DNA of 64,000 nt from an uncultured Gemmatimonadales bacterium (GTDB lineage: Bacteria > Gemmatimonadota > Gemmatimonadetes > Gemmatimonadales > Gemmatimonadaceae): positions 1 through 64,000 of the forward strand of contig CAWKNZ010000010.1 in NCBI GenBank assembly GCA_963851265.1, written 5' to 3'. Shown here in pieces: positions 933 through 64,000 of this stretch. How positions within the stretch are numbered: position 1 is the first letter of the stretch; every line of letters begins with the position of its first letter. The notes under the pieces were generated by a model. The model ran no database searches and was not told where the DNA came from. It saw only the letters and a list, made by a program, of their open reading frames with translations. The translations under genes and the position numbers were made by a program.

Positions 933-1685
933 ATGCCCCTGTTCGCCGCCAAGCCGGCGCCCGACGCCGTGTTCGCGCCCGCCCCCGGAGAGCCACTCTT
1001 CGCCCTGCGCGACGTCGAGAAGACGGTCGATGCGGGCGGCGCTCGGCACTACCTGCTCCGCCGCGTGTCGCTCGAGGTGCGCGCCGGGGAGTTCGTGACC
1101 GTGATGGGTCCGAGCGGGGCGGGGAAGAGCACGTTGCTCGCGATCCTCGGGTTGCTGGACCACGCGTGGACCGGCGCGTTCGCTTTCGCTGGCCGGGCGG
1201 TGCACGCGATGGCGCCCGCCCAGCGCACCGCGTTAGGCCGCGCGCACGTCGGCTTCGTCTTTCAGCAGTACCACCTGCTCGACGACCTGACCGTCGCCGA
1301 GAACCTCGACGTGCCGCTCGACTACCGCGGCGTGCCCAGGCGCGAGCGGCAGGCGCTCGTCGCCGACGCGCTCGACCGGTTCGGCATCGTCGGCAAGAAG
1401 GACCTCTTCCCGTCGCAGCTGTCGGGCGGGCAGCAGCAGCTGGTGGGGGTGGCGCGCGCGGTGATCGCGAGACCCGCGCTGCTCCTCGCTGACGAGCCGA
1501 CCGGGAACCTGCATTCGGGGCAGGCGCGGGAGGTGATGGAGCTGTTCGCACGGCTGAACGACCGGGGGACGACGATCGTACAGGTCACGCACAGCGAGGA
1601 GAACGCGCGGTACGGCTCGCGCGTCGTGCAGCTCCGGGACGGGTGGGTGGTCGCGGACGGCCCGTCGGCCCGCTCGACGCCTTGA
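933..1685 (+). CDS. ABC transporter ATP-binding protein (LolD/MacB-like)
   Basis: Walker A GPSGAGKS, signature LSGGQQQ, Walker B LLLADEPTGNL, H-loop QVTH. Confidence 0.93.
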   Translation: MPLFAAKPAPDAVFAPAPGEPLFALRDVEKTVDAGGARHYLLRRVSLEVRAGEFVTVMGPSGAGKSTLLAILGLLDHAWTGAFAFAGRAVHAMAPAQRTALGRAHVGFVFQQYHLLDDLTVAENLDVPLDYRGVPRRERQALVADALDRFGIVGKKDLFPSQLSGGQQQLVGVARAVIARPALLLADEPTGNLHSGQAREVMELFARLNDRGTTIVQVTHSEENARYGSRVVQLRDGWVVADGPSARSTP

Positions 1686-1884
1686 CGGGTGCCGCAGCAT
1701 GGCTTACCTGACACCGGGCCAACCCGCGCCGGAGCGATCGTGACCCGTGTGACGCTCCAGGAGCCTGTCGCGCTTCTGGTGCCGACACGGACTTCGAGCG
1801 GTACGGTGTGACGCGGCTCCCGCCGTAGCGCCCACCGCGACGCGCGGCGCCACGCCCCGTCCGCCCCTCCCCCGCCGCCCGCCC

Positions 1885-3300
1885 GTGTCCGACGTCCCGC
1901 TCCCACTCCGCGTGCTCGTCGCCGACGACCAGCCCGCGATCCTCGACGCCCTCGCCCTGCTGTTAGGCGACGAGGGCTTCGCGGTCGAGTGCGCGCGCAC
2001 CCCGCAGCACGCGGTCGCCGCGGTCGGACGCGCCGCCGCCCGCGGAGCGGACGTGGACGCGGCCCTCATCGATCTCAACTACGCGCGCGACACGACGAGC
2101 GGGCGCGAGGGGCTCGACCTCATCCCCGCGCTGCTCTCGTTCGACCCGACGCTCCCGATCGTCGTGATGACGGCGTGGGGGAGCGTCGAGGGCGCCGTCG
2201 AGGCCATGCGACGGGGCGCGCGCGACTACGTCGAGAAGCCGTGGGACGACGCGCGCCTGGCCGCGACGCTCCGCACGCACGCGGAGTTGGGCCGCGCGCT
2301 GCGCCGCGCGCGCTCTCTCGAGGCCGAGAACCGCGTGCTGCGCCAGGACGCGACCGGCGGGGCGGGCGCCGCGGCCGCGCCGATGCTCGCCGAGAGCGCC
2401 GCGATGCGGCCCGTGCTGCAGCTGCTCGCGCGCGTGGGGCCGAGCGACGCGAACGTGCTCGTGACCGGCGAGCACGGGACGGGGAAGGAGCTGGTGGCGC
2501 GGCGGCTGCACGCGATGAGCGCGCGCGCGGGCCGGCCGCTCGTGGTCGTCAACATGGGCGGGCTGTCGGAGGGCGTGTTCGAGAGCGAGCTGTTCGGCCA
2601 CGTGCGCGGCGCGTTCACCGACGCGAAGGTCGACCGCGTGGGCCGTTTCGAGATGGCCGACGCGGGGACGCTCTTCTTGGACGAAGTCGGCAACATGTCG
2701 CCCGGCCAGCAGGCGAAGCTGCTCCGCACGCTGCAGGAGGGCGAGGTCGAGCGGGTGGGCTCGTCGCGCACCCGGCGTGTGGACGTGCGCGTCGTGAGCG
2801 CGACCAACGCCGACCTGCGCGTGGACGTCGCGGCCGGCCGCTTCCGCGAGGACCTGCTGTACCGCCTCAACACGGTCGAGATCCGGCTCCCGCCGTTGCG
2901 CGAGCGGCGCGAGGACGTGCCGCTGCTCGCGGCCCACTTCCTCGCTCGGCACGCGGCCCGCTACGCGCGCCCCGCGCGGACGTTCGCGCCCGACGCGCTC
3001 GCGGCCCTGCTCGCACACCCGTGGCCGGGGAACGTGCGCGAACTCGGGCACGCCGTGGAGCGCGCCGTGCTCATGGCGGCGGGCCCGGAGGTGCGCGCGG
3101 CCGACCTCGCGCTCGCACTCCCGGCGGGCGACGCGGCGACCGGCGCGGCCGCGCTCGAATCGATGCCGCTCGAGGAGGTGGAGCGCGTGCTGATCGGCAA
3201 GGCGCTGCAGCGCCACGCCGGCAACGTGAGCCACGCGGCGCTCGCGCTCGGGCTGTCGCGGAGCGCGCTCTACCGCCGCATGGCGCACTTCGGGCTGTAG
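1885..3300 (+). CDS. sigma-54-dependent response regulator (NtrC/AtoC family)
   Basis: Receiver (VADD..., IDLNY, YVEKP), AAA+ GEHGTGKE, GAFTDA loop, WPGNVREL, C-terminal Fis HTH; GTG start. Confidence 0.95.
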   Translation: MSDVPLPLRVLVADDQPAILDALALLLGDEGFAVECARTPQHAVAAVGRAAARGADVDAALIDLNYARDTTSGREGLDLIPALLSFDPTLPIVVMTAWGSVEGAVEAMRRGARDYVEKPWDDARLAATLRTHAELGRALRRARSLEAENRVLRQDATGGAGAAAAPMLAESAAMRPVLQLLARVGPSDANVLVTGEHGTGKELVARRLHAMSARAGRPLVVVNMGGLSEGVFESELFGHVRGAFTDAKVDRVGRFEMADAGTLFLDEVGNMSPGQQAKLLRTLQEGEVERVGSSRTRRVDVRVVSATNADLRVDVAAGRFREDLLYRLNTVEIRLPPLRERREDVPLLAAHFLARHAARYARPARTFAPDALAALLAHPWPGNVRELGHAVERAVLMAAGPEVRAADLALALPAGDAATGAAALESMPLEEVERVLIGKALQRHAGNVSHAALALGLSRSALYRRMAHFGL

Positions 3301-3321
3301 CGCCGCGCCCGGAGTCCGCCG

Positions 3322-4770
3322 GTGCCACGCGCCTCGCACGCGACCCGCGTCGTCTTCGGTGTGCTCGCCGCCGGCGCGCCCGGCGTGGCGGCCGCGTGGT
3401 GGCTCGCGTGGCGTACGGGCGCGGACCGAGCCGCGCCGACGGCCTTCCTCCTCGCGGCCGCGGCGACGGCCGCGTTGCTGGTGGGCGCGCTCGCCGTGCG
3501 CGCGCGCGTGGACCGCCCGCTGCAGACGCTCGCCAACCTGCTCGCCGCGCTCCGGGCCGGCGACTTCTCGATGCGCGCGCGCGCGCCCGACGCGCCGCGC
3601 GACGCGCCCGTGGCGGCCGCGGCGCGCGCCGCCGACGCGCTCGGGCTCGCGTTCGACGAGGCCAACCGGCTCGCCGACACGCTGCGCGCCGAGCGGCTCG
3701 GCGCGCGCGAGAGCGCCGCGCTACTGCGGCGCGTGCTTGCCACCGTCGACGTCGCCCTGTTCGCGTTCGACGAGCACGACCGGCTGCAGCTCGTCAACCC
3801 GGCCGGCGCGCGGCTGCTCGCGCGCGCGGCCGGCGCGGTGCTCGGCGCGTCGGCCGCGGCGTTAGGCCTGGACGGGCTGCTCGACGGCGGGCAACGCGGA
3901 GCCGAGGGCGAGGCCGGGCCGGGCGCGCGAGTGGTGAGCGCGACCTTCCCCGGCGGCAGCGGGCGCTGGGACGTGCGCGCGGGCGACTTCCGCCAGGACG
4001 GGCGTCCGCACCGCCTGCTCGTCGTCACCGACCTGAGCGAGGCGCTGCGCGCCGAGGAGCGCCTCGCGTGGCAGCGCCTCGTGCGCGTGCTCTCGCACGA
4101 GATCAACAACTCGCTCGCGCCCATCAAGACCATCGCCGGGAGCCTCGCGCGGCGGGCGCGGCGCGCGGCGGCGGACGGTGACGCGGCCGCGCTCGACCCG
4201 CACGCGACTGCGCGCGGCCTCGAAATCGTGGCCGACCGCGCCGACGCGCTGGCGCGCTTCCTCGGCGCCTACGCGCGCCTCACGCGCCTGCCGCCGCCGT
4301 CGCGGCGCCCGGTGGACGTGGGCGCGTGGGTCGTGCGCGCGGCCGCGCTCGAGCACCGCGTGCCGGTCGCGGTGCGCGCGCCGCCCGGCGGCGAGCCGGT
4401 GCGCGTCGACGCGGACCCCGACCAGCTCGACCAGCTGCTCATCAACTTGCTGCGGAACGCCGCCGACGCCGCGCTCGACACGGGCGGAGGGGTGCGGGTG
4501 TGGTGGGCGGCGGACGACGGCGCGGGCGCCGACGCGGCGCCTAACGCCGCCGCGGTGCGCGTGACGGTCGAGGACGACGGGCCCGGGCTCGCCGCGACGG
4601 CCAACCTGTTCGTGCCGTTCTACAGCACCAAGCCCGACGGCAGCGGGATCGGCCTCGCCCTCGCGCGCCAGATCGCGGAGGCGCACGGCGGGACCGTCAC
4701 CCTCGCCAACCGCGACGACGGGCGGCGCGGGTGTCGCGCGGTGGTCACGCTGCCGGCGCGCGCGGCGTGA
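3322..4770 (+). CDS. membrane sensor histidine kinase (NtrY-like; HAMP-like, PAS-like, HisKA, HATPase)
   Basis: Two N-terminal TM segments, H-box LSHEINNSL, N-box NLLRNA, DDGPG, FYSTK, GSGIGL. Confidence 0.93.
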   Translation: MPRASHATRVVFGVLAAGAPGVAAAWWLAWRTGADRAAPTAFLLAAAATAALLVGALAVRARVDRPLQTLANLLAALRAGDFSMRARAPDAPRDAPVAAAARAADALGLAFDEANRLADTLRAERLGARESAALLRRVLATVDVALFAFDEHDRLQLVNPAGARLLARAAGAVLGASAAALGLDGLLDGGQRGAEGEAGPGARVVSATFPGGSGRWDVRAGDFRQDGRPHRLLVVTDLSEALRAEERLAWQRLVRVLSHEINNSLAPIKTIAGSLARRARRAAADGDAAALDPHATARGLEIVADRADALARFLGAYARLTRLPPPSRRPVDVGAWVVRAAALEHRVPVAVRAPPGGEPVRVDADPDQLDQLLINLLRNAADAALDTGGGVRVWWAADDGAGADAAPNAAAVRVTVEDDGPGLAATANLFVPFYSTKPDGSGIGLALARQIAEAHGGTVTLANRDDGRRGCRAVVTLPARAA

Positions 4771-4785
4771 CCCGCGTCTGGCGGT

Positions 4786-4935: not shown

Positions 4936-7374
4936 ATGTCACCCGACCTCCGCTCCGCCGTCGCGCAACTGCGCCGCGCCCCCGCGCACGCCGCGGCCGT
5001 CGTCATCACGATCGCGCTCGGCGTCGGTGCGACGACGGCGATGTTCAGCGTGGTCGATGCGGTACTCCTGCGCCCGCTCCCGCTCCGAGACCCCGAGGCC
5101 GTCGTCGTGGTGACGCCGGAGATCGCGGGCGTGCCGCGCGGCGGGTCGCCCGGGCTCCTGGCCGGATGGGGCGCGCGCAGCCGCCAGCTCCGCGCGATCG
5201 CGGGCCTGGAGACGCGCGACGTCACGCTCGTCCAGGGTGAGCTCGCCGAGCGGGTGTCGGCGCTCGCCGTCGACGGCGCGTTCTTCTCGGTGCTCGGCAT
5301 GGCCGCGGAGCGCGGCCGCACGTTGACGCCGAGCGACGACCGCCCCGGGGCACCCGCGGTGGCGGTGCTCGGCGACGGGCTGTGGCGGCGCGCGTTCGCG
5401 GCCGACCCGAACGTCGTGGGGCGAACGGTGCGGCTGGACGGCGTGGCCCGTAGCGTGGTGGGCGTGCTGCCGCCGGCGTTCGACGGGGTGTCGGGCGCGC
5501 GGGACGTGGTCGTCCCGCTCGCCCTCGCGCCGGCGCAGCGCGAGAACTTCACGCCGTACCTCACGCTCGTCGCGCGTCTCGCGCCCGGCGCGACGCCCGC
5601 GACGGCCGCGCGTGAGCTGGACCGCATCACGGCGGAGCTCCCGCCGCGCGCGGCGGTGGACGGCGTGCGACCGCTCGCGCACGTCGTCCCGCTCGGCCGC
5701 GAACAGACCGCCGCAGTCCGCCGGCCGCTCCTGCTGATGCTCGGCGCCCTCGCCGCCGTGCTCCTCCTCGCCTGCGCGAACGCGGCCACGCTGGTCCTCG
5801 TGCGCGGGGTCGGGCGCGCGCGAGAGATGGCCGTGCGCGCAGCGTTAGGCGCCAGCCGCGGGCGTCTCGTCCGCCAGCTGGTCGCCGAGCAGGTGGTGCT
5901 CGGCGCGCTGGGCACGGCGGGCGCGGCGGGCGTCGCGGCGGGGGCTACGCGCGCGCTCGTGGCGGCCGTGCCCGCCGACGTGCCGCGCGTCGCCGCCGCG
6001 TCGCTCGACGCGCGGGCGCTCGCGTTCACCGCGGCCTTGGGGCTGCTGGCGACCGGGCTGTGCGGCCTCGCACCGGCCCTCGCGCAACGCCGCCTCGACG
6101 TGCGCGGCGCGCTCCAGGGCGGCGCGCGCGGCGCGACCGACCGCCGCGGCGACCGCGCGCGCCGCGCGCTCGTCGGGGTCGAGGTCGCGCTCGCGGTCGT
6201 GCTGCTCGCGGGCGCGGGGCTGCTCCTGCGGAGTTCGGCGGCCCTCGGCCGAGTGCGGCCTGGCTTCGACCTCGCCCACGTGCTCACCGCGCGGCTCGCA
6301 CTCCCGACGCGCGACTATCCGAACGTGCCGGATGCGGTGCGGCAGTTCGGCGCGGTGCTCGACGCGGCCCGCGCGCAGCCGGGCGTCGCGAGTGCCGCGC
6401 TCGTCTCGCGCGTCCCGCTCGGTGGGAGCCTCACGAGCGTCGACGTCGCACCGGTCGGGGCGCCGTTCACGCGCGGCACCAAGCTCACCGCCGGCCTCCG
6501 GATTACGAGCGCGGACTACTTCCGCAGCATCGGGATTCCGCTCCTGGCGGGGCGCGACCTCCGCGCGACCGACGGCGCGACGTCGGCCGCCGTCGTCGTC
6601 GTCAATGCGACGTTCGCGCGCCGCATCGGTGCCGCGACGCCGGCCGGGGCGGTGGGACGGCGCGTGCAGAGCGACAACGCCGCGTTCGCGGACGGCGCCG
6701 GGCGTCCGGGGGCGCTCGAGATCGTCGGCGTGGTCGGCGACGTGCGGGACGGCGGGCCGCGCGCGGAGGCCGCGCCGGAGTTCTACGCGCCGTTAGGCCA
6801 GGTCGGTGACGAGCCGTGGGATTACTGGGTGGGTCGGGAGATGGTACTCGTCGCGCGTACGCGCGGGCCGGCCGCGGCGGCCGCGCCGGCGCTGCGCCGT
6901 GCCGTCGCGTCGGTCGACGCGCGCGTGCCGCTGTACGACGTGCGCACGACGGAGGCGCGAGTCGGTGCGGCGCTCGCGGTCGAACACTTCAGCACGCGCC
7001 TCCTCGTCACGCTCGGCGCGCTCGGGCTGGTGCTCGCCGCGGTCGGCATTCACGGCGTGGTCGCGTACACCGCGTCGCAGCGCGCGCGCGAGGTCGGCAT
7101 CCGACTCGCGCTCGGTAGCACTCCAGGGCGCGCGGTGTCGCTCGTCGTGCGGCAGTGCGCGGGTCCCGTGCTGGCGGGCACGGTCGTCGGCGGCCTCGTG
7201 GCCCTCGTCGCCGGACGGGCCGCGGCGGGACTGCTGTTCGAGGTCTCGCCGCTCGACCCGGTGAGCGTGGGCGGCGCGGTGGCACTCCTCGGAGTGGCCG
7301 GCGTCGCGGCGGCGTGCGGTCCGGCGTGGCGCACCGCGCGCGTCGATCCGGCCGGCGCGATGCGGCCGGAGTGA
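4936..7374 (+). CDS. ADOP-family duplicated ABC permease (2x MacB_PCD + FtsX)
   Basis: 812 aa; 'IALGVGATTAMFSVVDAVLLRPLP', 'LLACANAATL..R.REMAVRAALGASRGRLVRQL', second 'QRAREVGIRLALGS'. Confidence 0.92.
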   Translation: MSPDLRSAVAQLRRAPAHAAAVVITIALGVGATTAMFSVVDAVLLRPLPLRDPEAVVVVTPEIAGVPRGGSPGLLAGWGARSRQLRAIAGLETRDVTLVQGELAERVSALAVDGAFFSVLGMAAERGRTLTPSDDRPGAPAVAVLGDGLWRRAFAADPNVVGRTVRLDGVARSVVGVLPPAFDGVSGARDVVVPLALAPAQRENFTPYLTLVARLAPGATPATAARELDRITAELPPRAAVDGVRPLAHVVPLGREQTAAVRRPLLLMLGALAAVLLLACANAATLVLVRGVGRAREMAVRAALGASRGRLVRQLVAEQVVLGALGTAGAAGVAAGATRALVAAVPADVPRVAAASLDARALAFTAALGLLATGLCGLAPALAQRRLDVRGALQGGARGATDRRGDRARRALVGVEVALAVVLLAGAGLLLRSSAALGRVRPGFDLAHVLTARLALPTRDYPNVPDAVRQFGAVLDAARAQPGVASAALVSRVPLGGSLTSVDVAPVGAPFTRGTKLTAGLRITSADYFRSIGIPLLAGRDLRATDGATSAAVVVVNATFARRIGAATPAGAVGRRVQSDNAAFADGAGRPGALEIVGVVGDVRDGGPRAEAAPEFYAPLGQVGDEPWDYWVGREMVLVARTRGPAAAAAPALRRAVASVDARVPLYDVRTTEARVGAALAVEHFSTRLLVTLGALGLVLAAVGIHGVVAYTASQRAREVGIRLALGSTPGRAVSLVVRQCAGPVLAGTVVGGLVALVAGRAAAGLLFEVSPLDPVSVGGAVALLGVAGVAAACGPAWRTARVDPAGAMRPE

Positions 7375-12599: not shown

Positions 12600-15500
12600 A
12601 TGCCCCTCGTTCCCCGCACCCGCCCGGTCGTGCGGGCCGGCGCCGCGTTCGGCGTCGCCGCCGCCTGTGTCGCCGCCGTCCGCGGCAGCCCACTCCTCGC
12701 GCAGTCCGCGGGACCGCGGCCGGCGGACGCCGCGGCCGCGCGCCGCGCGTTCACCCACGCGGACCTCGTCGCGTGGAAGAACGTGCGCAACGCGCAGCTC
12801 TCCAACGACGGCCGCTGGTTCGCGTACCAGTTCGCGCCTAACGAAGGGGACGCGGAGGTCGTGCTGCGCTCGGTGGCCGACGGGCGCGAGGTGCGCGTGG
12901 CGATCGGCGAACCGCCGGCGGGCGCGGGCGGGCCGCCCAACGCGGCCGCGGCCGCGACGGTGGCCTTCAGCGGCGACGGCGAGTGGCTCGCGGTGACGAC
13001 GTACCCCGCGCAGGCCGAGGCGCGGCGGCTTCGGCGGGAACACAAGCCGGCGCAGAACGGGGTCGCCGTGATGCACACGCGCGACGGGCAGGTGCGCCGC
13101 TTCGAGCGGGTGCGGAAGTTCGCGTTCGCGGGGCCGCGTCCGGCGTACGTCGTGCTGCAAGCGTACCCGACGGACGCGCCCGCCTCCGCCATCGCCGCGG
13201 CCAGCGCGCCGCCCCCCTCCACGGGGCTCCCGGGGGGCACGCCCACGCCGCCCGCGCCGCTCCGGGTCGACCCGGCCGACCTGCTCCTCCACCGGTTAGG
13301 CACCGAGAGCGTGCTGACCGTGGGTTCGGTGGGCGAGTTCGCGCCCGACTCGTCGGGCGCGTGGCTCGCGTACACCATCGAGGGACGCGACCCGCAGGGG
13401 AACGGCGTCCAGCTGCATGACCTCCACACCGGTCTCGTGCGCGTGCTCGACAGCCGGCGCGCGGTGTACCGGCGGCTGGCGTGGAACGACTCGCTGCCGC
13501 AGCTGGCCGTGCTCCGCGGGACGGTCGACACCGTCGCGCACGACACCGCGTACGCGGTGCTCGGCTTCCAGGGCTTCGGCGCGCGTGCCGACGGGCCGCG
13601 CGTGACGAGCCTCGCACTCGGCGGGCGCCCCGACGCGCCCGCCGGCATGCGCGTCTCCCCCGACCGCACGCCGCGCTGGACCGAGGCGGGTGACGGCCTG
13701 CTGTTCGGGCTGCGCGAGCGCCGGCCCGCGGCGCCGCGGGACAGCGGGCCCGACGAGGACCGCGCGCACCTCATCGTCTGGCACTGGAAGGAGCCGCGCC
13801 TGCAGTCGCAGCAGATCGTGCAGGAGCAGGGCGACCGCGCGTTCAGCTACCTGACCGCCTACTGGACCGGGCCCGACCGCGTCGTCGCGCTCGCCGACAC
13901 GGCCGTCCGGCAGGTGACGATGACGCCGCACGACCGTTGGGCCCTGGGCGTCGACACGCGCGCCGACGAGCGGCGCGGGAACCTCGAGGGGCTGCCGCGC
14001 GTCGACGTCGCGGTGATCGACCCGCGCACGGGCGAACGGCGCACCGCGCTCAAGGCGCTCCGCCAGGGCCCGACGGTGCCCTCGCCCGACGGCCGGCGGT
14101 TGCTGTTCTTCTCGGAAGGCAACTTTCACGCGCTCGACCTCGCGACGCTCGCCCAGCGCAACCTCACGGCCGGCGCGCCCGTGCCGTTCTGGGACGCGGA
14201 GGACGACCACAACGTCGAGAAGCCCGCGACGACGCCCATCGGCTGGACGAGTGACGCCAGCGCGGTGCTGCTCTCCGACAACTGGGACGTGTGGCGCGTG
14301 CCGGCCGCGGGCGGCGCGCCGGTCAACCTCACGCGCGGCGCGGGCGGGTCGGGGCGGCAGCAGAAGGTGCGCTACCAGCGGCGGATCGTCGTCGACCCGC
14401 GCGCGGCGGGCGTCGACCCGCGACAGCCCCTGTACGTGACGATGTACGGCGAGCGCACCAAGAAGGGCGGCTTCGCCCGCGTCGACGTCGAGCACGGCGG
14501 GGCGACGCCGGTGATCTTCGACGACGCCGCGTTCGCGCCGCGGCGCGCGCGCGACGCCGACGTGTGGGTGACCACGCGCGGCACGTTCACCGAAGTGCCC
14601 GACTGGTGGCGGATCGAGGCCGGCCCGTCCGGCGGCCGCCTCACGACGCGCCTGACCAACGCGGGCGCGCAGCTCGCCGCGTTCAAGTGGTCGAGCGGCA
14701 CCCGCGTCGTCGACTACGTGTGCGCCAACGGCGACTCGCTGCAGGCGACGATCTTCCTGCCGGCCGACTACGCGCCGGGCGCGCGCGTCCCGACGGTCGT
14801 CACGTTCTACGAGAAGATGTCGCAGAACCGGCACGTGTTCACGCCGCCGAGCGAGGTGAACGGGGTGATGATCCACCCCGGGATGTTCGCGAGCCGTGGC
14901 TACGCGATCGTGATGCCCGACATCACCTACCGCGTGAACGACCCGGGGGTCAACGCCGTGGGCTGCATGGTGCCGGCCGTGCGCGCGGCCGTCGCGAGCG
15001 GCGTGGTCGACTCGGCGCGCGTGGGCATCCAGGGGCACAGCTGGAGCGGGTACCAGACGGCGTTCATCGTCACGCAGACGCCGATCTTCCGCGCCGCGGT
15101 CGCGGGCGCGCCGCTCACCGACATGGTGAGCATGTACAGCTCGGTCTACTGGAACACCGGCTCCGCCAACCAGGCCATCTTCCAGTCGAGCCAGGGGCGG
15201 TTCAAGGGCAACTTCCTGTCGAATTGGGACGCGTACGTCCGTAATTCGCCCAACCGCTTCGCCGACCGCGTCACGACGCCGCTCCTCATGCTGCACAACG
15301 ACCGCGACGGCGCGGTGGACTTCAACCAGGGCATCACGTTCTACAACACGCTGAAGCAGTTGGGCAAGCCGGTGATCCTGCTCGAGTACCCGGGCGAGAA
15401 CCACGGCCTCGCGCAGCGCGGCAACCAGAAGGACTACCAGCAGCGGCTGGCCGAGTGGTTCGACGTGCAGCTGCGCGACGCCCCGGCGCCGGACTGGATC

Positions 15501-21200: not shown

Positions 21201-21863
21201 ATGCGAATCGGTATAATCGGCGCCGGCAACATCGGCGGCGCCCTGACACGGCGACTGCGCGAGGTCGGCCACGACGTCGCGGTCGCGAACTCGCGCGGCC
21301 CGGAGTCGCTCGCGGGATTGGCCGCGGAGACCGGGGCGACCGCCGTCACCGTCGCCGAAGCGGCGCGCGGTCGCGACGTCGTCATCGTGACGATCCCCCA
21401 GAAGCACATCCCCGATCTGCCCCGCGACCTGTTCGCCCAGGCGCCGCCCGACATGCCGATCGTCGACACCGGCAACTACTACCCGCGTCAGCGGGACGGG
21501 CGCATCGACGCGATCGAGGCGGGCATGGTGGAGAGCCGCTGGGTGGCCGAGCAGCTCGGGCGGCCGGTGATCAAGGTGTTCAACAACATCTACGCGAAGC
21601 ACCTGCTCGAACGCGGCCTTGCGCCGGGCGCGCCGGGGCGGATCGCGCTCCCCGTCGCGGGGGACGATCCGGCCGCGAAGGACGTCGTCATGCGCCTCGT
21701 CGACGCGATCGGTTTCGACCCGGTCGACGCGGGTGGGCTGGACGAGTCGTGGCGCCAGCAGCCGGCCACGCCGGTCTACGGCAGCGACCGCGACGCGGAG
21801 GGGGTACGCCACGCGCTCAGCGAGGCTCGCCGCGAGCGGCCGGCGGAGTTCACGGCCGCCTAA
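21201..21863 (+). CDS. NADPH-dependent F420 reductase family (F420_oxidored) oxidoreductase
   Basis: GGAGG RBS; IGIIGAGNIG, ANSRGP, DTGNYYP, KVFNN, DAGGL. Confidence 0.9.
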   Translation: MRIGIIGAGNIGGALTRRLREVGHDVAVANSRGPESLAGLAAETGATAVTVAEAARGRDVVIVTIPQKHIPDLPRDLFAQAPPDMPIVDTGNYYPRQRDGRIDAIEAGMVESRWVAEQLGRPVIKVFNNIYAKHLLERGLAPGAPGRIALPVAGDDPAAKDVVMRLVDAIGFDPVDAGGLDESWRQQPATPVYGSDRDAEGVRHALSEARRERPAEFTAA

Positions 21864-21905
21864 CGGAAGCGGGGGTGGCGGCGCCGGGCGTGTGGCCGCG
21901 CCGCC

Positions 21906-34476: not shown

Positions 34477-34564
34477 GCCGTTCGCGTCGCTAGTGTTCGT
34501 TGGCCTGCTTCAGCTTGCGACGCCCGTCGGCGCCGTCGACCACCGTACCCCCTTCATCTCCTCC

Positions 34565-35219: not shown

Positions 35220-35244
35220 GGCGCGCCGCGGGCCGCGGCGCGCC
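35220..35244. terminator. GC hairpin between convergent genes
   Basis: GGCGCGCCGCGG-g-CCGCGGCGCGCC; no U-tract. Confidence 0.4.
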
Positions 35245-35270
35245 TAACGGCGAGGCGCGAGACGCGCCGG

Positions 35271-45844: not shown

Positions 45845-45855
45845 CGTCGCCAACG

Positions 45856-45889: not shown

Positions 45890-46008
45890 GGCGCAGTCCG
45901 CCGACCAGTCGCGCGGCCCGCGGCGGCGCGGCACGCGCGGTGCCCCCGGCGGTCACGTCCTGCTACTCCGCCGCCTAACCGCGGCCTGCGACCCCGAACT
46001 TTCACGAG

Positions 46009-49457: not shown

Positions 49458-50462
49458 TCACGGAGTACCGGGCGCCGCGGGTGCGAGGAACCGGTGCCGG
49501 CGGAGCCACGTCGCGCACAGCGTGGCCCAGGTCGCGAGCGCGGGGTTGCCCGGTGCCAGGCCGAACCCGTGACCGCCCGTCTCGTACACGTGCAGCTCCG
49601 CGGGCACGCCGGCCGCGTGCAGCGCACGGTAGAACAGCAGCGAGTTCTCCACGGGCACGACATCGTCGTCGCTGGCCGCGACGAGGAACGTCGGGGGCGT
49701 CGCGGCCGTGACCTGGGTTTCGAGCGAGAGCGCGCGTACGAGCGTCGCGTCGGGGTGGGCGCCGAGCAGGTTCGTGCGCGAGCCCGCGTGGGCGGAATCG
49801 CCCATCGTGACGACCGGGTAGATGAGCACCGACACGTCCGGTCGCGCGCTCAGCCGGTCGGTCGAGTCGCCGGCTGCCGCGCCGGCCGGGTCGGCGTAGC
49901 GGGTCGTCACCGTTCCGGCCATGTGCCCGCCCGCCGAGAACCCGATCACACCCACACGGTGCACGTCCACGCGCCACTCGCGGGCTCGCGCGCGCACGAG
50001 GCGCACGGCGCGCAGCGCGTCCTGCTCCATCGCGGGGTGGTGGTACCGCGGCCCGAGTCGGTAGCGCACGACGAACGCGGCCACGCCGAGCGAGTTGAGC
50101 CAGCGCGCGACGTCGGTGCCTTCCTTGTCGAATGCCAGGTGCGTGTACCCGCCGCCCGGGTAGACGACCATCGCTGCGCCGGTCGCGCGCCCGGGAGCTG
50201 GGAGGAACGGCGTCAGGTCCGGCCGATCCTCGGGCGCGTCGCCGACGGCGCCGGGCGCGCGCGCGCGCCAGAGCGGGACGGGTGCCGGCAGGGACGCCCC
50301 CGGCTGCGCGCCTAACGTGCGCGCCGCGGCGCTGGACGCCACGCCGGCGCCCAGAGCGGTCCCGAGCGCCACGATGCGTCGGATGCGCCGGAGCTGCCTG
50401 TGGACGGACGCGGTCACGCGCGCGCGGTGTCTCCCTTGAGGATCGGGAACGCGCGACGACAT
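49458..50462 (-). CDS. alpha/beta hydrolase, putative carbohydrate esterase
   Basis: PGGGY, EGTD, GFSAGGH, LIYPV, DDDVV, GGHGFG; start uncertain (alternative 50489). Confidence 0.87.
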   Translation of the reverse strand: MSSRVPDPQGRHRARVTASVHRQLRRIRRIVALGTALGAGVASSAAARTLGAQPGASLPAPVPLWRARAPGAVGDAPEDRPDLTPFLPAPGRATGAAMVVYPGGGYTHLAFDKEGTDVARWLNSLGVAAFVVRYRLGPRYHHPAMEQDALRAVRLVRARAREWRVDVHRVGVIGFSAGGHMAGTVTTRYADPAGAAAGDSTDRLSARPDVSVLIYPVVTMGDSAHAGSRTNLLGAHPDATLVRALSLETQVTAATPPTFLVAASDDDVVPVENSLLFYRALHAAGVPAELHVYETGGHGFGLAPGNPALATWATLCATWLRRHRFLAPAAPGTP

Positions 50463-52904: not shown

Positions 52905-53575
52905 CCGCGCGCCTCGACAACGGCGTCGCGGACGCGACGCGCGCGCGCCGCGAGCGCGGCCATGTCGCCCGCGGCCACGAGCGCGGGGTCGACGAGCGAC
53001 GACCCGAGCCCCACCGCCAACGCGCCCGCGCGCAGCCACTCGCCGACGTTGTCGGGCGTGACGCCGCCCGTCGGCATGAGGCGGAGGAACGGCATCGGCG
53101 CGAGCACGCCGCGGACGTGCGCCGCGCCTAACGTGTCGGCGGGGAACACCTTGACCAGGTCCGCGCCGGCGGTGTGCGCCGCGTAGATTTCGGTGGGCGT
53201 GAACGCGCCCGCGAGCACCGGCACCCCGAGCCGGTGCCCCTCGTCGATCAGCCCGGGCACGAACACGGGGCTCACGACGAACGCCGCGCCGGCCCCGACG
53301 GCGCGGCGCGCCGCCTCCGCGTCGAGCACGGTCCCCGCGCCGAGGAGCAGGTCGGCGTCGCGCCACCCGGCTAGGTCCTCGAGCAGGTCGAGCGCGCCCG
53401 GCGTGGTCATCGTCAGCTCGATCGCGGTCACGCCGCCGTCCGCGATCGCCCGTATCGCGTCGAGCGCGCGGCGCGTGTCGGACAGGCGCACGACCGCCAC
53501 GGCAACCCGCGACAGCAGCTCGGCGACGACCCGCTCGCGAGGCACGGCGGGGCGGAGGGGGGCGGTCGGGGGCAC
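52901..53575 (-). CDS. eda: KDPG/KHG aldolase
   Basis: VAVVR, IELT, GAGTVL, FVVSP, TPTE, VKVFPA, PTGGV. Confidence 0.92.
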   Translation of the reverse strand: MPPTAPLRPAVPRERVVAELLSRVAVAVVRLSDTRRALDAIRAIADGGVTAIELTMTTPGALDLLEDLAGWRDADLLLGAGTVLDAEAARRAVGAGAAFVVSPVFVPGLIDEGHRLGVPVLAGAFTPTEIYAAHTAGADLVKVFPADTLGAAHVRGVLAPMPFLRLMPTGGVTPDNVGEWLRAGALAVGLGSSLVDPALVAAGDMAALAARARRVRDAVVEARG

Positions 53576-53608
53576 GGGCGGGAGGCGGGTGGGGGTTCGT
53601 CGGGAACG

Positions 53609-55180
53609 TTAGGCGCCCGGGGTCGGCTCGAGGGCGTCGAGCGCGGCGGCGGCCCCGCCGTCGCGTAACCGGACGAGGTGCGCGGTCACGGAGTCGGTGA
53701 GCCCGGGCACCGCGTCGAGGTCGTCGCCCCAGAGCGCGACGTCGCCGCAAACCGCGCGCGCGAACGCGCCGAGTGCGTCACCGTCGACACGACCCCCGAG
53801 CGCGTCCCATCGGTCGCGCACCGCCGCGCCCCGGTCGTCCGGAGGGACGGCGAGCCCCGCGGCACGACGCGCATCCTGCAGCGCACCGCGGCAAAACCAG
53901 AGGTGCGCGGCGAAGCCTAGCACGAGCGCCTCGGGCGCGCGCCCCCGGGCGGCCGCGTACCGCGCGATCGTCGGGACGACGCGCACGCGGACCTTCGTCG
54001 TGCCCTGAAGCGTGATGTCCCAGAGCGCGTGGCGGAGGTCGGCGTTGTCGAACCGGTCGAGCACGGCGCGCGCGTACGCGTCCAGCCCGGGCAGCGTTCC
54101 GCCCAACGCGTCGAGCGTCGGCGCGATCTCGGCGAACAGCACGCGCCGCACGAACGCCCCGAGCCGCGGGTCGTGCAGCGCGTCGCGTACCGTCGCGCAG
54201 CCGGCGAGCAGGGCGAGCGGCACCATCGCCGTGTGCGTCCCGTTCAGCAGCCGCAGCTTGCGCTCGCGGTACGGCGCGACGGCCGGGGTCACGAACACCG
54301 AGTCGCCGTGCGCCGCGACGAACCCGAGCCGCGCGCGGAGCGCGTCGTCCCCTTCGATCGCGAACAGGTGATATGGCTCGCACGTCGTCAGCAGCGCGTC
54401 GCGGTAGCCCGTCGCCGCCGCGAGCGCCGCAGCCGCGTCTCCGACCGGCGCGCCCGGGACGATGCGGTCGACGAGCGTGTTGCAGAAAACGACGTCGTGC
54501 TCCACCCAGCGCACGAAGGCCGCGCCCACGTCCCACCGCTCCGCGAGGGCGAGGACCAGCGTGCGCAGTACGTCGCCGTTGCCCTCGACGAGCTCGCACG
54601 GCAGCACGATCACGCCCTTCGACGGCGCGAAGTCGAACGCGCGCCCGCGCTCCAGAAGAAAGCGCGCGAGCTTGGCGGGGAATGAGCGCGGCGGTCGTGC
54701 GTCCACGCGATCGGCATCCGCGTCGGGGTCGTGCGCGAGCCCGACCTCGGTGGTGTTCGAGAACACGAGCGCCAGCAACGGATTCCGCGCGCAGGACAGC
54801 ACCGCGTCCCAGTCGTCCACGGCCGACAGCGCGCGGCTCACCGCGGCCACCACGCGGAGCGCGCGCGCGGGCGCGCCGCCGACGGTCCCACGCACGGCGA
54901 GCGTGTACAGCCCGTCCTGGTCGGCGAAGGCGCGGTCGCGCCCGCTGCCCGTCGATCCGATCACGACCACGCGCCCGCGGAACTCGCCGCGCCGGTTCGC
55001 CTGGTCCAGCGCGTCGTCGACGAGCCCGCGCAGCAGCGCGCCCGTCCCGAACTGCACCGCGCGCTCCGGCAGGTCGGCGAAGCCTTCGGGCGGCGGTGTG
55101 ACGTCGGCGCGCGCGCGAAAGGCAGCGGATTCAGCCAGCGCGCGCGTGAGGCGCGGTGCCCGCGCCTCCGCGCCCGTCAA
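53609..55180 (-). CDS. uxaB: tagaturonate (altronate) oxidoreductase
   Basis: LPERAVQFGTG, QDGLYT, SNTTEVG, SFPAKL, LPCEL, NTLVDRIVPG, YRERKLRLLNGTHT; TTG start overlapping uxaA stop. Confidence 0.88.
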   Translation of the reverse strand: MTGAEARAPRLTRALAESAAFRARADVTPPPEGFADLPERAVQFGTGALLRGLVDDALDQANRRGEFRGRVVVIGSTGSGRDRAFADQDGLYTLAVRGTVGGAPARALRVVAAVSRALSAVDDWDAVLSCARNPLLALVFSNTTEVGLAHDPDADADRVDARPPRSFPAKLARFLLERGRAFDFAPSKGVIVLPCELVEGNGDVLRTLVLALAERWDVGAAFVRWVEHDVVFCNTLVDRIVPGAPVGDAAAALAAATGYRDALLTTCEPYHLFAIEGDDALRARLGFVAAHGDSVFVTPAVAPYRERKLRLLNGTHTAMVPLALLAGCATVRDALHDPRLGAFVRRVLFAEIAPTLDALGGTLPGLDAYARAVLDRFDNADLRHALWDITLQGTTKVRVRVVPTIARYAAARGRAPEALVLGFAAHLWFCRGALQDARRAAGLAVPPDDRGAAVRDRWDALGGRVDGDALGAFARAVCGDVALWGDDLDAVPGLTDSVTAHLVRLRDGGAAAALDALEPTPGA

Positions 55181-56832
55181 AGCGTCACCCCGGCCTTCCA
55201 GATCGCGATTTCGCGGTCGCCGTTGCGCTCGTTGTTGGTGCGCACGCGCCCCGACGCCACATCGAGCACCAGGGCGAGGAGGTCGGCGGCGAGCGCGTCC
55301 AGCGTGATCCCGGCATCCGGGCCGCCGCCGCACAGCAGGCGTCCGGCGTCGAAGTCGATCCAGTGGGGCTTTCTCGCGGCGATGTCGCTGTTCGAGCTGA
55401 TCTTGAGCGTGGGTACCGGGAAACCGAGCGGCGTGCCGCGGCCGGTCGTGAAAAGGAGCAGCGTCGCGCCGCTCGCCGTAAGCGCGGTACACGACACGGC
55501 GTCGTTCCCCGGCGCTTCCACGAGCGACAGCCCGCCATACGCCGGGCCCACCGGCGCGCCGTAGCGGAGGACGGCGCGCACCGGCGCCCGCCCCCCTTTC
55601 TGGACCGCGCCCAACGACTTCTCCTCCAGCGTGGTCAGGCCGCCGGCCTTGTTCCCCGGCGACGGGTTCTCGTGCACCGGCTGTCCGTGCCGCACGAAAT
55701 ACTCCCTGAAATCGGTCACCATCGCGACGAGCGCGTCGAACGTGCGCTCGTCGGCGCACCGGTCCATCAGCACCTGCTCCGCCCCGAACATCTCGGGCAC
55801 CTCGGTCAGCAGCACGCGCCCGCCGAATCCGCTCACGCGGTCGGCGAGGCGGCCGAGCAGCGGGTTGGCCGTGACCCCGCTGAACCCGTCGGAGCCGCCG
55901 CACTTGTGGCCTAACACGAGGTCGGATGCCGGGCAGGCGTTGCGCGCGTCACCCGCCATGCCGGCGACGAGTTCGCCGACCGCGGCGACGCCCTCCTCCA
56001 GCTCGTCCAGCACGTCCTGCGTGTTGAAGAAGCGGAGCCGCGAACGGTCGACGCCCGGACCGGCCGCCGCGAGCAGCTGGTCCATCTGGTTGTTCTCGCA
56101 CCCGAGCCCGAGCACGAGCACGCCGCCGGCGTTCGGGTGACGCATGAGCCCCGCGAGCGCGCGCTGCGTGCTCCGCAGGTCATCCCCGAGCTGCGAACAG
56201 CCGTACGGGTGCGCGAATGCGTACACGCCGTCGACATAAGGCGCGTCGGCATGGCGCGCACCGGCGGCGCGCGCGATGCGCTCGGCGGCCGTGTTCACGC
56301 AGCCCACGGTGTTGATGATCCACACCTCGTTGCGCGTGCCCACCCGCCCGTCGCGGCGACGGTACCCTTCGAACGTCGGCGTCGCCGCGGGGAGCGATGC
56401 CGGCGTGGCGTGTGCGCCCGGGCGCCGGTACTCGAGCGTTCCGCCGAGTCGTGTGGCGAGGTTGTGCGAGTGGACCCACGCTCCCGGCGCGATCGGCACC
56501 GTCGCCGCACCGATCGGGAATCCGTACTTCGTCACCGCTTCCCCGACGTCGACCGACTGCAGGGCGAACTTGTGCCCGGCCGGCACGTCGTCGCGGAGCG
56601 TCACGCAGGCGCCGTCGACCGCAACGGTAGTGCCCGCCGCGAGGGCGCGTACGGCGACGGCGACGTTGTCCTCCGGCGTCACGCGCAACGCCGACGGCGC
56701 GTCCGAGGACGGCGCGCCGGGTGCGCCACGCCGGAGTTCGGCACCCCGGAGTCCGGTATCCCGCGACTCGATATCCCCGTCCCCGCTGCGGGCCGTCGCG
56801 TCCGCGCGCTCGAACCGCAGCACCCTGCTCAT
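55177..56832 (-). CDS. uxaA: altronate dehydratase
   Basis: SAF domain (DNVAVA, GHKFAL, KYG, HSHN), GTRNE, HPYGCSQLG, KCGGSD, NPSPGNKAGG, FTTGRG. Confidence 0.93.
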   Translation of the reverse strand: MSRVLRFERADATARSGDGDIESRDTGLRGAELRRGAPGAPSSDAPSALRVTPEDNVAVAVRALAAGTTVAVDGACVTLRDDVPAGHKFALQSVDVGEAVTKYGFPIGAATVPIAPGAWVHSHNLATRLGGTLEYRRPGAHATPASLPAATPTFEGYRRRDGRVGTRNEVWIINTVGCVNTAAERIARAAGARHADAPYVDGVYAFAHPYGCSQLGDDLRSTQRALAGLMRHPNAGGVLVLGLGCENNQMDQLLAAAGPGVDRSRLRFFNTQDVLDELEEGVAAVGELVAGMAGDARNACPASDLVLGHKCGGSDGFSGVTANPLLGRLADRVSGFGGRVLLTEVPEMFGAEQVLMDRCADERTFDALVAMVTDFREYFVRHGQPVHENPSPGNKAGGLTTLEEKSLGAVQKGGRAPVRAVLRYGAPVGPAYGGLSLVEAPGNDAVSCTALTASGATLLLFTTGRGTPLGFPVPTLKISSNSDIAARKPHWIDFDAGRLLCGGGPDAGITLDALAADLLALVLDVASGRVRTNNERNGDREIAIWKAGVTL

Positions 56833-60565: not shown

Positions 60566-60584
60566 AACGCTCGGAGGACGCACG

Positions 60585-61853: not shown

Positions 61854-61929
61854 GTACCCGTAGTCCAGTCCAGCTCCACAGCAGGCGAGCGTGCGCGGAT
61901 GTCCTCCGCGCACGCTTGGCGCGCCCGCG

Positions 61930-63110
61930 TCACCGGATGAACGTCGCCCGAGCGCAGCTTTAGGTCTTGTGCTTGAACAGGTCGTAGCCGCGCACCGCGT
62001 CCTCGAGCGGCAAGGGATGAGTTACGAGGTACGACGGGTCGAGTTCGCCGCGCGATGTGATCGAGCAGCGGCGGCACGTCCGTCTGCCCGTGCTCCTGGG
62101 CGGAGCGCATCGTGAGCCCCTTGTTCACGATCAACCCGACCGTGAACGCGGCCATCAAGCCGTAGACGCCGAGCACCGACACGGTGCCGCCCCTTGGGGC
62201 AGGCGAGGATCGCCTGGCGGAGCGCCGCGCCGCGGTTCGTCTCCCGCGTAGCGCCTGCCTGACGCGGTCGTACGCGTACTCGGCGGGCGTATCGCGCGCC
62301 TCCATCCCGACCGCGTCGATACACGCGTCGGGCCCGCGGCCCCCGGGCATGTCGCGCAGCGCGTCGACCACGTCCACCGCGGTGTAGTCGAGCGTCGCGG
62401 CGCGCGCGGTCGCGTGCGAGACGGAGCCGCTCCGGGAAGCCGTCGATCGCCACGACGCGTTCGGCGCCTAACAGATACGCGCTCTGCATCGCCATCAGGC
62501 CCACGCCGCCCGCACCCCACACCGCGACCATGTCGTCCGGGCGGAGCTGGCAGAAGTCTGCGCCCGCGAACCCCGTCGGCGCCGCGTCCGAGACGAACAG
62601 CACATGGTCGTCGCGCACCCCGTCGGGCACGGGGCAGCGGTCGACCTCGGTGTGCGGCACCCGCACGTACTGGGCTTGCGCGCCCGCGTCCCCGCCGGAC
62701 GCGTGCGTGGATCCGTAGATCCGCGCTGTCGCGTCGCCGAGTAGCGGCTCCTGCTTCGCCGCGTTGGGGTTGGTGTTGTCGCAGCAGGACCAGAGGTCGT
62801 GCTGGCATTACCAGCAGTTACCGCGGCGAATGAAGGACGCGACCACCACGCGGCCGGCGGGGACGCGGGCGCGGACGCCCAGAACGTGCGGACGTCCAGC
62901 CCGCCCTCCTCGACCACGCCCGTGATCTCGTCGCCGATGTTGTCGCCCGCGCGCATCGTCGGGAGATCGCCGCCGATGAAATGCAGGTCCGATCCGCACG
63001 TCGTCGACGCCGTGAAGCCGATGATGATGTCCCGAGGGTCGATGATCTCCGGGTCGGGGACCAGGTCGGCCCACAGATCGTTCACTCCGTGCCAGCACCG
63101 TGCGCGCGCG
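61930..63110 (-). pseudogene. degraded Zn-dependent alcohol/formaldehyde dehydrogenase
   Basis: Fragments in several frames: 'CWHGVNDL..VPDP', 'CGSDLH', 'SDAAPTGF', 'VWGAGGVG', 'GRGPDACIDAVGME', 'GYDLFKHKT*'; frameshifts and stops. Confidence 0.88.
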
Positions 63111-63332
63111 ACGCAGTCACCTCTGAATGGGCGCTGGACGGACAGCCGCCGCTCGATTGCTCGGGGCGCAACGAGCGCGCCACGTCGGTGCACCACCGCG
63201 TGTCGGTGAACGGAGATCGCTCGCCCGCTCGGGTCGAGCACACCGGCGGCACGGACGGCGGGCGGCACCGCCGGGGTGACCGGCCCGGATACCGTCGAGC
63301 AATCGGACGCATCCGCATCTGCTGCATATGAT

Positions 63333-63479
63333 ATGCAGCTGGTTCACCTGCGTCGTTACCTGACCGCGGCGGGCGACGCGTTGGGCTACCGGGGAGGGGC
63401 GTCCATCATCCGCGCAAGTCTGTGCGGCGTTTTTCACGCGTCAGTTTCATCGTCGTGGCGGTCCGTGACGCCGCTGTAA
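63333..63479 (+). pseudogene. possible LysR N-terminal HTH remnant
   Basis: 'MQLVHLRRYLTAAGDALGYRGGA' loosely resembles LysR starts (MELRHLRYF.AVAE.L.F..AA); divergent from the dehydrogenase pseudogene. Confidence 0.3.
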
Positions 63480-64000
63480 CCGAAAACGGCTACAATCTGG
63501 ATTGCGTGACTCCTCCGTCATGCATAGCATGTGCTTCGAGTTACCTGCCGTCTGATCAGTTCGCTTGCCCCGTGAGCGACTGATGTTTATAGCGACCGTG
63601 GCCTCTTCCCCGTCCACGGTCGCGGCTAGTGCCCTCACGTACCATCGTCGACCGGACGGCCCCCACCGTCCGGCCAGTTAGGCGCGGCCGCATGCGGCGG
63701 CCGCGCCCTGGTACGCCGTCATTCCTCGAGGGGCATGGTATGCCGTCCAGCTGGTGCCGCACCGCAACACGCATCGTCCGCGCGAGCGCCCGGACGGCAC
63801 GCCGATGACGGCTCTGCAAAGCCCGGAGCCCGAGCGCGCCCCGGCGCTGGCGCCCGTGGGCGCCGACGCGTGGTCCGGCGACACGCAGTTCGACCGGCGG
63901 CACGCGCGCGACGACGCGCAGCGCCGTAACCGCGCCCGCGGCGCGGTCGCGGGCCGACGCGCCGGTGACGGCGCGGGTGCGGCGCAGTGGGTGGCCCCCT

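Follow-up and report, generated by a model that had tools for sequence, protein, structure and literature searches.

Why should a single heptamer built from some of the rarest codons recur on both strands, and in several reading frames, throughout a chromosome of 73% G+C? The question is raised by a 64,000-nt stretch of DNA from an uncultured member of the Gemmatimonadales (C10:1-64000, hereafter the window). It belongs to the genome under study, G000, a 4.60-Mb assembly of 12 contigs that is 94% complete. An initial annotation of the window had listed 28 copies of the word GTTAGGC or its complement GCCTAAC and had ascribed them to a signal acting at the level of DNA. All 28 are present exactly where it had placed them, 14 on each strand. 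One hundred dinucleotide-preserving shuffles of the window gave a mean of 2.20 matches (standard deviation 1.48, maximum 6) and none reached 28; the zero-order expectation of about 5 proposed at the time was of the right order. The word is preceded by C in 20 copies and by T in 5, as had been reported, by G in 2 and by A in 1. Over the whole genome the consensus is Y-GTTAGGC followed mostly by a purine, with GTTAGGC as its core. Our tentative answer to the question is that YGTTAGGC(R) may well be a tag, akin to the DNA uptake sequence (DUS) of Neisseriaceae and the uptake signal sequence (USS) of Pasteurellaceae, that is spread by biased exchange of DNA between kin.

Abundance and codon context of the word

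Counted over the whole genome, the word occurs 1762 times (885 and 877 copies on the two strands), or once per 2.6 kb on average. Markov models of order 1 to 3 predict 96-160 copies, and the enrichment is about 14-28 fold. GTTAGGC is the most over-represented 7-mer of G000 (z 170), and CGTTAGGC is the top 8-mer (1396 copies observed vs 50 expected). Under models of order 4 and 5 the observed/expected ratio is as low as 1.7 and 1.0, because such models absorb the word itself, 98% of TTAGGC hexamers being preceded by G. The word holds 1762 of the 1794 TTAGGC hexamers and 1762 of the 6001 TTA trinucleotides in the genome. At the position preceding the core (-1), C accounts for 79% of the copies and T for 14%; at the position following it (+7), the values are G 54%, A 22%, C 19% and T 5%. 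The rarity of T after the word and the location of most copies inside genes ruled out a promoter -10 element. The window is ordinary for its genome in word density, which varies between 0.33 and 0.55 copies per kb on all 12 contigs. A literature search for the heptamer returned primers and the like only.

Genes were delimited with a simple in-house caller (3634 genes called, covering 88% of G000). On this basis 1291 copies lie inside genes, while 471 lie outside called genes or at their edge. The former are found as sense xxG-TTA-GGC (991 copies), antisense CCT-AAC (203), antisense CTA-AC (73) and sense GTT-AGG-C (24). As many as 1000 of the 1283 TTA codons (78%) are followed by GGC, and 119 of the 417 TAA stops take the form GCC-TAA-C. 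When synonymous codons were shuffled within each gene, so that every TTA codon stayed in its own gene, sense copies numbered 43.4 +/- 6.4 vs 1015 observed, and antisense copies 28.5 +/- 5.3 vs 276 observed. These ratios of about 23 and 10, far from 1, together with the preference of TTA codons for the G_GGC context, bear out the earlier contention that the word overrides codon bias.

The prominence of the sense frame (991 of 1762 copies) would suit a translational or mRNA-level effect of the dicodon TTA-GGC. However, when the peptide sites able to carry the word synonymously are taken as the reference, the share filled is 9.2% for sense TTA-GGC and 13.7% for antisense CCT-AAC (3.9% for antisense CTA-AC and 0.7% for sense GTT-AGG), so that antisense frames are filled as fully, per site, as the sense frame. 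The sense excess is not a strand preference; it arises because X-Leu-Gly is far commoner than X-Pro-Asn (10761 vs 1435 potential sites). The 471 copies outside or at the edge of called genes, which occur in either orientation, and the 119 stop-codon copies argue against such an effect as well. The purely translational form of this explanation is excluded, and the explanation as a whole retains next to no probability.

Distribution, maintenance and gain of the word

Word density is 1.19 copies per kb in convergent spacers, 0.49 in tandem and 0.36 in divergent ones, compared with 0.32 in coding DNA. Along the contigs the orientation of the word follows gene strand; in tandem spacers the two orientations are equally represented (82 vs 72). 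Replichore polarity was evaluated from one inferred terminus, placed on C2 near 1.37 Mb where gene strand and GC skew switch. Genes on the leading and lagging strands carry the word at 7.7% vs 5.4% of their Leu-Gly sites (p 0.087, odds ratio 1.45) and at 7.9% vs 9.1% of their Pro-Asn sites. With respect to this terminus, there is no significant polarity of the kind known for Chi or for FtsK-orienting polar sequences (KOPS). Altogether, the use of both orientations per site, the copies in spacers and stop codons, and the lack of detectable replichore polarity support the DNA-level signal envisaged in the initial annotation.

These data bear on the possibility that the word acts as a Chi-like regulator of an AddAB-type helicase-nuclease, its copies protecting nearby DNA after a break and promoting RecA loading. 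Like Chi, the word is an over-represented oligomer in the 5-8-mer range that could mark self DNA, and its spacing of one copy per 2.6 kb is within the range of known Chi sites. The genome encodes an AddAB-like pair (C3:244.5-249 kb, two adjacent genes with PD-(D/E)XK nuclease domains); RecC was not found in this 94% complete assembly. The scarcity of close pairs and the low density in foreign-looking genes, described below, would also fit a self mark. Yet known Chi sites are strongly strand-skewed and built from common codons, whereas GTTAGGC is built from the rarest ones and has no significant leading-strand bias once gene strand is controlled for, its orientations in tandem spacers being equal. 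Furthermore, an enrichment of 14-28 fold against codon bias, with amino acid changes, is far above the levels known for Chi. We thus regard a Chi-like role as quite unlikely.

Spacing between copies departs from an exponential distribution: gaps shorter than 200 bp number 46 vs 130 expected, and gaps of 0.5-2 kb are in excess. The scarcity of close pairs fits diminishing returns from a second copy nearby. The number of copies per gene follows a Poisson distribution scaled by gene length. Density depends on how native the codon usage of a gene is, rising from 0.17 copies per kb in the least native genes to 0.38-0.41 in typical ones; low density in foreign-looking genes is as expected of a slowly accumulating host tag. 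The top tenth of genes by native codon usage stands at 0.35 per kb, slightly below the next classes, and three long word-free gaps cluster at C2:1.08-1.17 Mb. Both this dip and the C2 gaps may reflect selection against TTA in highly expressed genes. Two hairpins carrying the word in both arms, perfect and terminator-like, are found at C2:11,210-11,230 and C2:116,117-116,147 and resemble the inverted pairs formed by DUS.

The longest word-free stretch of G000 spans 45 kb (C1:182,876-227,962); the next longest is 22 kb and the mean gap 2.6 kb. It contains mnmG, parA, parB and mnmE and has a normal G+C content, while the dnaA region lies in a further word-free gap of 15 kb (C1:2,107-17,073). Such an arrangement, along with the scarcity of close pairs and the conservation of sites, could be taken to indicate that the word is bound by a nucleoid or chromosome-organising protein whose sites are needed at regular intervals. 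In relatives, however, the parAB gap is not general: it was not seen in G235, G012 or G114 and is partial in G004 and G001, where the mnmG region has about half of the genome mean density; in G235 and G012 the word occurs inside mnmG itself. A weak benefit per site would hardly override codon and amino acid choice about 1300 times. The presence or absence of the word among close genera would, moreover, require repeated gain or loss of the organiser. This explanation, too, seems quite improbable.

Maintenance of the word was assessed in three relatives of the same genus, G001, G003 and G004, whose orthologs of window genes are about 80-87% identical at the DNA level (about 20-30 kb of the window aligned to each). 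Conservation in orthologs had been suggested as a check of the initial annotation; the word is kept in 18 of 35 aligned site comparisons (6 of 12 in G003, 7 of 11 in G004 and 5 of 12 in G001). In the same alignments, outside the word, a third-position A is conserved in 12.6% of cases; identity is likewise 12.6% for A- or T-ending codons, and 6-16% for TTG, CTT and CTA. We consider the word to be maintained because 18 of 35 sites are kept against 12.6% for A/T-ending codons elsewhere; judged from these alignments, it appears to be kept far better (we put the factor at roughly ten) than comparable rare codons. Conversely, the three relatives hold 33 copies without a counterpart in the window.

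The glutamate synthase gene gltB illustrates how copies come and go. Among four members of the genus (81-89% protein identity), this gene carries 12 word sites, only two of which are common to three species, the others being confined to a single species; no word sites were found in gltB of three outgroups. Several of these sites were made by amino acid replacement (Ile>Leu, Val/Pro/Ala>Leu, Gly>Asn, His>Asn and Glu>Gly), and they arose from sequences as different as ATC, GTG, CCG-GGG and GCG-GGC. These comparisons show that each species gains its own copies and that new ones keep arising.

The alleles that replace the word at orthologous sites bear on a local mutation or repair bias, whether deamination of methylated GCC(m5C)AAC to GCCTAAC, repair of the very-short-patch type or gene conversion biased toward the word after recombination. 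GTTGGGC, one transition away, is the commonest alternative allele (4 of 33), and among single-mismatch neighbours within the core only CGTTGGGC is clearly enriched (726 copies, observed/expected ratio 2.3-2.5); both findings would be in keeping with such a bias. On the other side, 22 of the 33 alternative alleles differ at 2-4 positions, transversions included, and the origins of the gltB sites lie beyond one hotspot step. Nor is any single-mismatch neighbour depleted as a repair substrate would be, and close precursors contain TTR or TAA, which are rare at 73% G+C. Multi-step alleles and undepleted neighbours ruled out very-short-patch-type repair and a single deamination hotspot as the main cause. 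Local bias as a whole is in our opinion highly improbable; biased conversion following exchange is, with the present data, indistinguishable from biased uptake.

The word has also left its mark on proteins. The observed/expected ratio for Leu-Gly is 0.97 in G006, a genome in which the word is not enriched, 1.03 in G000 and 1.19 in G235, which carries 1.4 copies per kb; for Pro-Asn the corresponding values are 1.11, 1.17 and 1.62. Across these three genomes, therefore, the imprint on the proteome rises with word density. Public reads were also searched: in one soil run, 21% of the sampled words were found, on short contigs of low depth, and none of the differences listed there fell on a word copy, so that these reads are uninformative about polymorphism.

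Phylogenetic range, integrons and a candidate self tag

A survey of 251 genomes of the phylum was made by scoring CGTTAGGC against a reversed control word, genomes with at least 1.5 times the control count being called enriched; the counts are descriptive, since kin genomes are not independent. Nine genomes reach this threshold, namely G000, G114, G124, G159, G188 and G235 of family f1, and G167, G206 and G213 of one genus of family f2. Three more are near parity, and no genome among the 81 outside the order shows enrichment. The four unpublished genomes G011, G078, G117 and G198 enter the survey as non-enriched rows only. Counts in relatives against the reversed control word show enrichment in each of the five members of the genus (977-3304 copies vs 187-365), and one other genus of the family reaches 7758 copies. 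Most relatives are depleted, one for example having 11 copies of the word vs 279 of the control. The range of the word, which had been proposed as a further check, thus comprises at least five separate lineages of one order, all enriched in the same word, and none elsewhere in the phylum as sampled. A 277-kb sample of the most enriched genome, G235 (L072-L091), contains 392 copies of GTTAGGC vs 11.5 expected. This genome prefers the longer form TCCGTTAGGC, and TCCGTTAG occurs 76 times there vs 2.3 expected; G000 has no preference for TCCGTTAGGC. On these counts, TCCGTTAGGC is a flank "dialect" that leaves the core word unchanged.

The initial annotation had been unable to match the word to any described motif. 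In this respect it must be amended, although its inference of a DNA-level signal stands: the integron core site, present in attC and attI, has the consensus GTTRRRY / RYYYAAC, and GTTAGGC is one of its 16 spellings. Indeed, the word is the R box of attC sites in G000 and its order, Y and R flanks included. In G000, pairs made of GCCTAAC followed 90-114 nt later by GTTAGGC adopt the fold typical of attC sites: the outer arms are paired, a spacer is left unpaired, the inner stem contains bulged bases and the loop varies. The outer arms are GCCTAAC and GTTAGGC themselves (C10:188.9-203.8 kb and C6:1.6 kb). This fold ruled out tRNA acceptor stems as the source of the 83-114-nt pairs. The C10 segment is a cassette array with at least 6 attC-like sites. 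On C6 (C6:1-6,230), attC-like pairs lie beside intI, which an insert of about 2 kb encoding a large serine recombinase has split into residues 2-265 and 260-313. The two loci together have the appearance of a decayed chromosomal integron. A cassette open reading frame (ORF) at C6:1273-1557 looks by eye, with no search behind the likeness, like a BrnT-type toxin. The attC-bearing loci gave no match in an Rfam search, and no tRNA was found in the cassette array. A literature search on integrons and attC sites of the phylum yielded no paper on this word.

The match is not limited to G000. At loci chosen only because they adjoin intI, 8 of 8 attC-like sites use GTTAGGC; over all attC loci, most of which were picked by means of the word itself, the figure is 47 of 49. 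The 96 attC arms have C 56%, T 34% and A 0% at -1, and G 56%, A 25%, C 15% and T 4% at +7. That attC arms and solitary copies share their flank preferences seems unlikely to be due to chance.

Such identity raises the possibility that the word is read by IntI or by another integron-associated factor, the genomic copies being secondary sites of recombination or binding, or products of an integrase-dependent process; were the specificity anchored in integrons, the enrichment of one word in separate lineages would be accounted for. The attC match does not account for the genome-wide copies, however, because pairs in the order GCCTAAC then GTTAGGC within 200 bp number about 11, leaving at most some 20 of 1762 copies in attC-like pairs. 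About 99% of the copies stand alone, lacking a partner arm, an L box and a cassette setting, and are found in frame within housekeeping genes. Nor does enrichment follow the presence of an integrase. Of 31 relatives, 18 have an integron integrase that scores above the family cut-off, although the majority of these are non-enriched, and intI is full-length in G088, the non-enriched sister of the genus. When integrase status was compared over 15 enriched genomes, the gene was full-length in G003, G004, G114, G188, G235 and G206, cut by a contig end in G159, and broken in G000, G001, G012, G213, G166 and G167. No copy was detected in G124 (99% complete, E<=1e-30), G002 or G018. Insertion of cassettes followed by their excision would not be expected to rewrite codons in place, and strong integrase sites in housekeeping genes ought to be harmful. 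Finally, the measured genomic insertion sites of IntI1 are reported to require no more than GWT and to be unlike attC and attI sites (10.1101/2022.09.11.507474). Altogether, we consider this integron-linked explanation rather unlikely. As a separate matter, 6 of the 12 integrase-bearing enriched genomes have a broken copy, against few of the non-enriched genomes looked at; an active integrase could be costly in a genome full of its own core site, with the proviso that the numbers are small and the genomes related.

Biased exchange of DNA between kin is put first because it is the only known mechanism that lets many weak sites prevail over codon and protein constraints. According to this model, the word would be read on double-stranded DNA, independently of strand and reading frame, and a force acting on the DNA itself, most likely biased exchange between kin, would keep it in the chromosome. 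A predicted reader protein of the uptake or exchange route would prefer fragments bearing the word, and these would replace word-less alleles more often than the reverse. The word would then pile up where it is cheapest: at Leu-Gly and Pro-Asn dipeptides, at Ala-stop gene ends and in spacers downstream of genes. We infer both the biased step, uptake or exchange, and the existence of a specific receptor.

The parallel with DUS and USS is broad. Like them, the word is short, non-palindromic and hugely over-represented, uses both strands and has no replication polarity; within genes it occupies several frames, and it alters protein sequence, is denser downstream of genes, forms some inverted pairs and is rarer in foreign-looking DNA. 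The genome encodes ComEC, DprA, secreted ComEA-like proteins and a type IVa pilus cluster (PilS/R, pilA, three unassigned ORFs and pilMNOPQ; the pilA cluster is at C5:26.2-29.4 kb), along with a Tad pilus cluster. By comparison, HIP1 of cyanobacteria is likewise a highly iterated short word written into genes, a trait shared with KOPS and architecture-imparting octamers, but HIP1 is palindromic, which GTTAGGC is not, and KOPS-type words are polar toward the terminus, which GTTAGGC is not. The integron core site is spelled identically, flanks included, and sites with this R box occur in G000 and its order, but the copies considered here are mostly solitary and integrase does not track their enrichment. 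The set of features agrees with that of DUS and USS and is not known from any other class of genomic word described so far.

Several observations weigh against this model. Known DUS and USS occur throughout families, as dialects, whereas the word is present or absent within an order, in the same spelling and with no family-wide dialects. Enriched genomes form at least five separate groups on an RpoB tree (28 genomes, FastTree, one gene, ORFs chosen by BLASTP), and 400 kb of the non-enriched G006 contain no hyper-abundant word that could take its place (GTTAGGC itself, 3 copies vs 7.3 expected). The core is 7-8 bp long vs 9-12 for DUS and USS, and its enrichment, about 14-28 fold, is lower than theirs. 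A plain uptake model does not predict identity with the integron R box, which also sets the word apart from DUS and USS. Single-mismatch variants are weakly enriched or near expectation, save CGTTGGGC and TGTTAGGC (243 copies), the latter fitting Y at -1. Inverted pairs are few in G000, the polarity test relies on a single inferred terminus and leaves a weak trend (odds ratio 1.45, p 0.087), and every gene-based count depends on the in-house caller. The ComP-type receptor domain ComP_DUS (PF16732) was not found in G000, G004, G088 or G006; G235 gave 20.7 bits, below the cut-off. The predicted receptor may be of a different fold. The presence of the exchange machinery carries little weight because competence genes are near-universal (PilQ in 29 of 30 genomes of the order) and do not separate enriched from non-enriched genomes. 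We found no paper on uptake sequences in Gemmatimonadota, nor one reporting competence in this phylum.

One extension of the exchange model would bring the integron back into play. Suppose that the order had a DNA-exchange receptor specific for YGTTAGGCR, the sequence in the outer arms of every attC site. Gene cassettes would then be imported in preference to other DNA, and the same bias would write the word across the chromosome in those lineages that exchange DNA often. We look upon this as an unlikely elaboration. It would explain the occurrence of one identical word in separate lineages and would couple the sequence preference of natural transformation to the pool of integron genes. There is a precedent for the underlying traffic in Vibrio cholerae, where incoming single strands from natural transformation are reported to feed cassettes to the integron (PMC12614218).

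If a self tag is indeed involved, the implications go beyond this order. Sequence tags of self DNA are not known to be firmly established beyond two families of Proteobacteria, both host-associated. If soil bacteria of another phylum, free-living and for the most part uncultured, had a comparable tag, biased exchange between kin would be more widespread than thought, and the word would be a computable marker of it. Its presence or absence among close genera amounts to a natural experiment, through which phyletic profiling could lead to the reader protein, and its match to the integron core suggests a connection, open to testing, of DNA uptake with the capture of cassettes. Irrespective of mechanism, codon usage (78% of TTA codons), the choice of stop codon and even dipeptide frequencies are distorted by the word; gene finders and codon-based inference should therefore account for it in these genomes.

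The copies in the window and their neighbourhood

According to Pfam searches, the genes of the window serve ordinary housekeeping and metabolism (among them ABC transporters, two-component systems, glutamate synthase, ethanolamine lyase and sugar-acid catabolism), so that the word belongs neither to a repeat family nor to a mobile element; an Rfam search of the window gave no match. Sixteen of the 23 TTA codons in its called genes sit in G-TTA-GGC. The initial annotation had counted 17 copies in this frame; the extra one is probably that at 62466..62472 (-), which lies in a 1.9-kb stretch (61.9-63.7 kb) having several overlapping ORFs and no called gene. Its other frame counts were recovered on recounting (three antisense CCT-AAC, one sense GTT-AGG-C and one antisense CTA-AC), as was the contribution of GCC-TAA-C to three of the six TAA stops found among 46 called genes. 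Four copies are in spacers or uncalled DNA.

Sense TTA-GGC copies begin at the left end of the window with 1232..1238 (+), as xxG-TTA-GGC in an ABC-transporter ATPase gene (933-1685, +). They continue with 1962..1968 (+) in a sigma-54 activator gene (1885-3300, +) and 3861..3867 (+) in a histidine kinase gene (3322-4770, +), both of which are present in the G004 and G001 orthologs. The copies at 5844..5850 (+) and 6792..6798 (+) share a MacB/FtsX permease gene (4936-7374, +). The one at 13295..13301 (+) lies in an S9 peptidase gene (12600-15653, +) and is replaced by GTTGGGC in G003 and by GCTGGGC in G001, while that at 17405..17411 (-), in a glycosyl hydrolase gene (17171-18520, -), is kept in G003, G004 and G001. 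Within gltB (21906-26624, -), the copies at 23199..23205 (-) and 24291..24297 (-) are both kept in G003 and G004; G001 has CTG-GGG at the first and TTG-GGC at the second, where three outgroups have Ile (ATC).

Further along, the same frame is found at 28969..28975 (+) in a polysaccharide deacetylase-like gene (28184-29326, +), at 40766..40772 (+) in eutC (40218-41006, +; GCTCGGC in G004) and at 42770..42776 (-) in a penicillin amidase gene (41030-43357, -; kept in G003, GCTCGGC in G001). It recurs at 47631..47637 (+) in an alpha-amylase-family gene (46009-47931, +; kept in G003 and G001), at 50310..50316 (-) in a hydrolase gene (49458-50417, -), at 53126..53132 (-) in a KDPG aldolase gene (52901-53575, -; kept in G004 and G001) and at 55909..55915 (-) in an altronate dehydratase gene (55177-56823, -; GTTGGGC in G003).

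Antisense CCT-AAC copies are located at 4539..4545 (-) in the histidine kinase gene, at 12836..12842 (-) in the S9 peptidase gene, with GTTGGGC in G003 and G001, and at 25239..25245 (+) in gltB, the latter being found only in G000 among the four genus members compared. The sense GTT-AGG-C copy (40872..40878, +) is in eutC and the antisense CTA-AC copy (41367..41373, +) in the penicillin amidase gene. TAA stops of the form GCC-TAA-C are provided by the copies at 21858..21864 (-) for the gene 21201-21863 (+), at 45839..45845 (-) for the gene 44120-45844 (+), and at 53608..53614 (+), where GCC-TAA-C is read on the - strand, for the gene 53609-55180 (-), this last being kept in G004. Spacer copies lie at 35242..35248 (-) between the convergent genes 34475-35209 (+) and 35271-36686 (-), at 45973..45979 (-) between 44120-45844 (+) and 46009-47931 (+), where it is kept in G003, and at 63677..63683 (+), upstream of the gene 63754-65409 (+).

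Gene order is not kept within the genus: orthologs of neighbouring window genes, at 80-87% DNA identity, are on different contigs or far apart in G001 and G004. Adjoining gltB is a gene for a 403-aa tyrosine recombinase of the XerC/D type (26753-27964, -), which is below all curated cut-offs; its score of 46 bits against a cut-off of 265 ruled it out as an integron integrase. The 12 kb beyond the recombinase (29-40.7 kb) contain a single copy of the word, located in a spacer.

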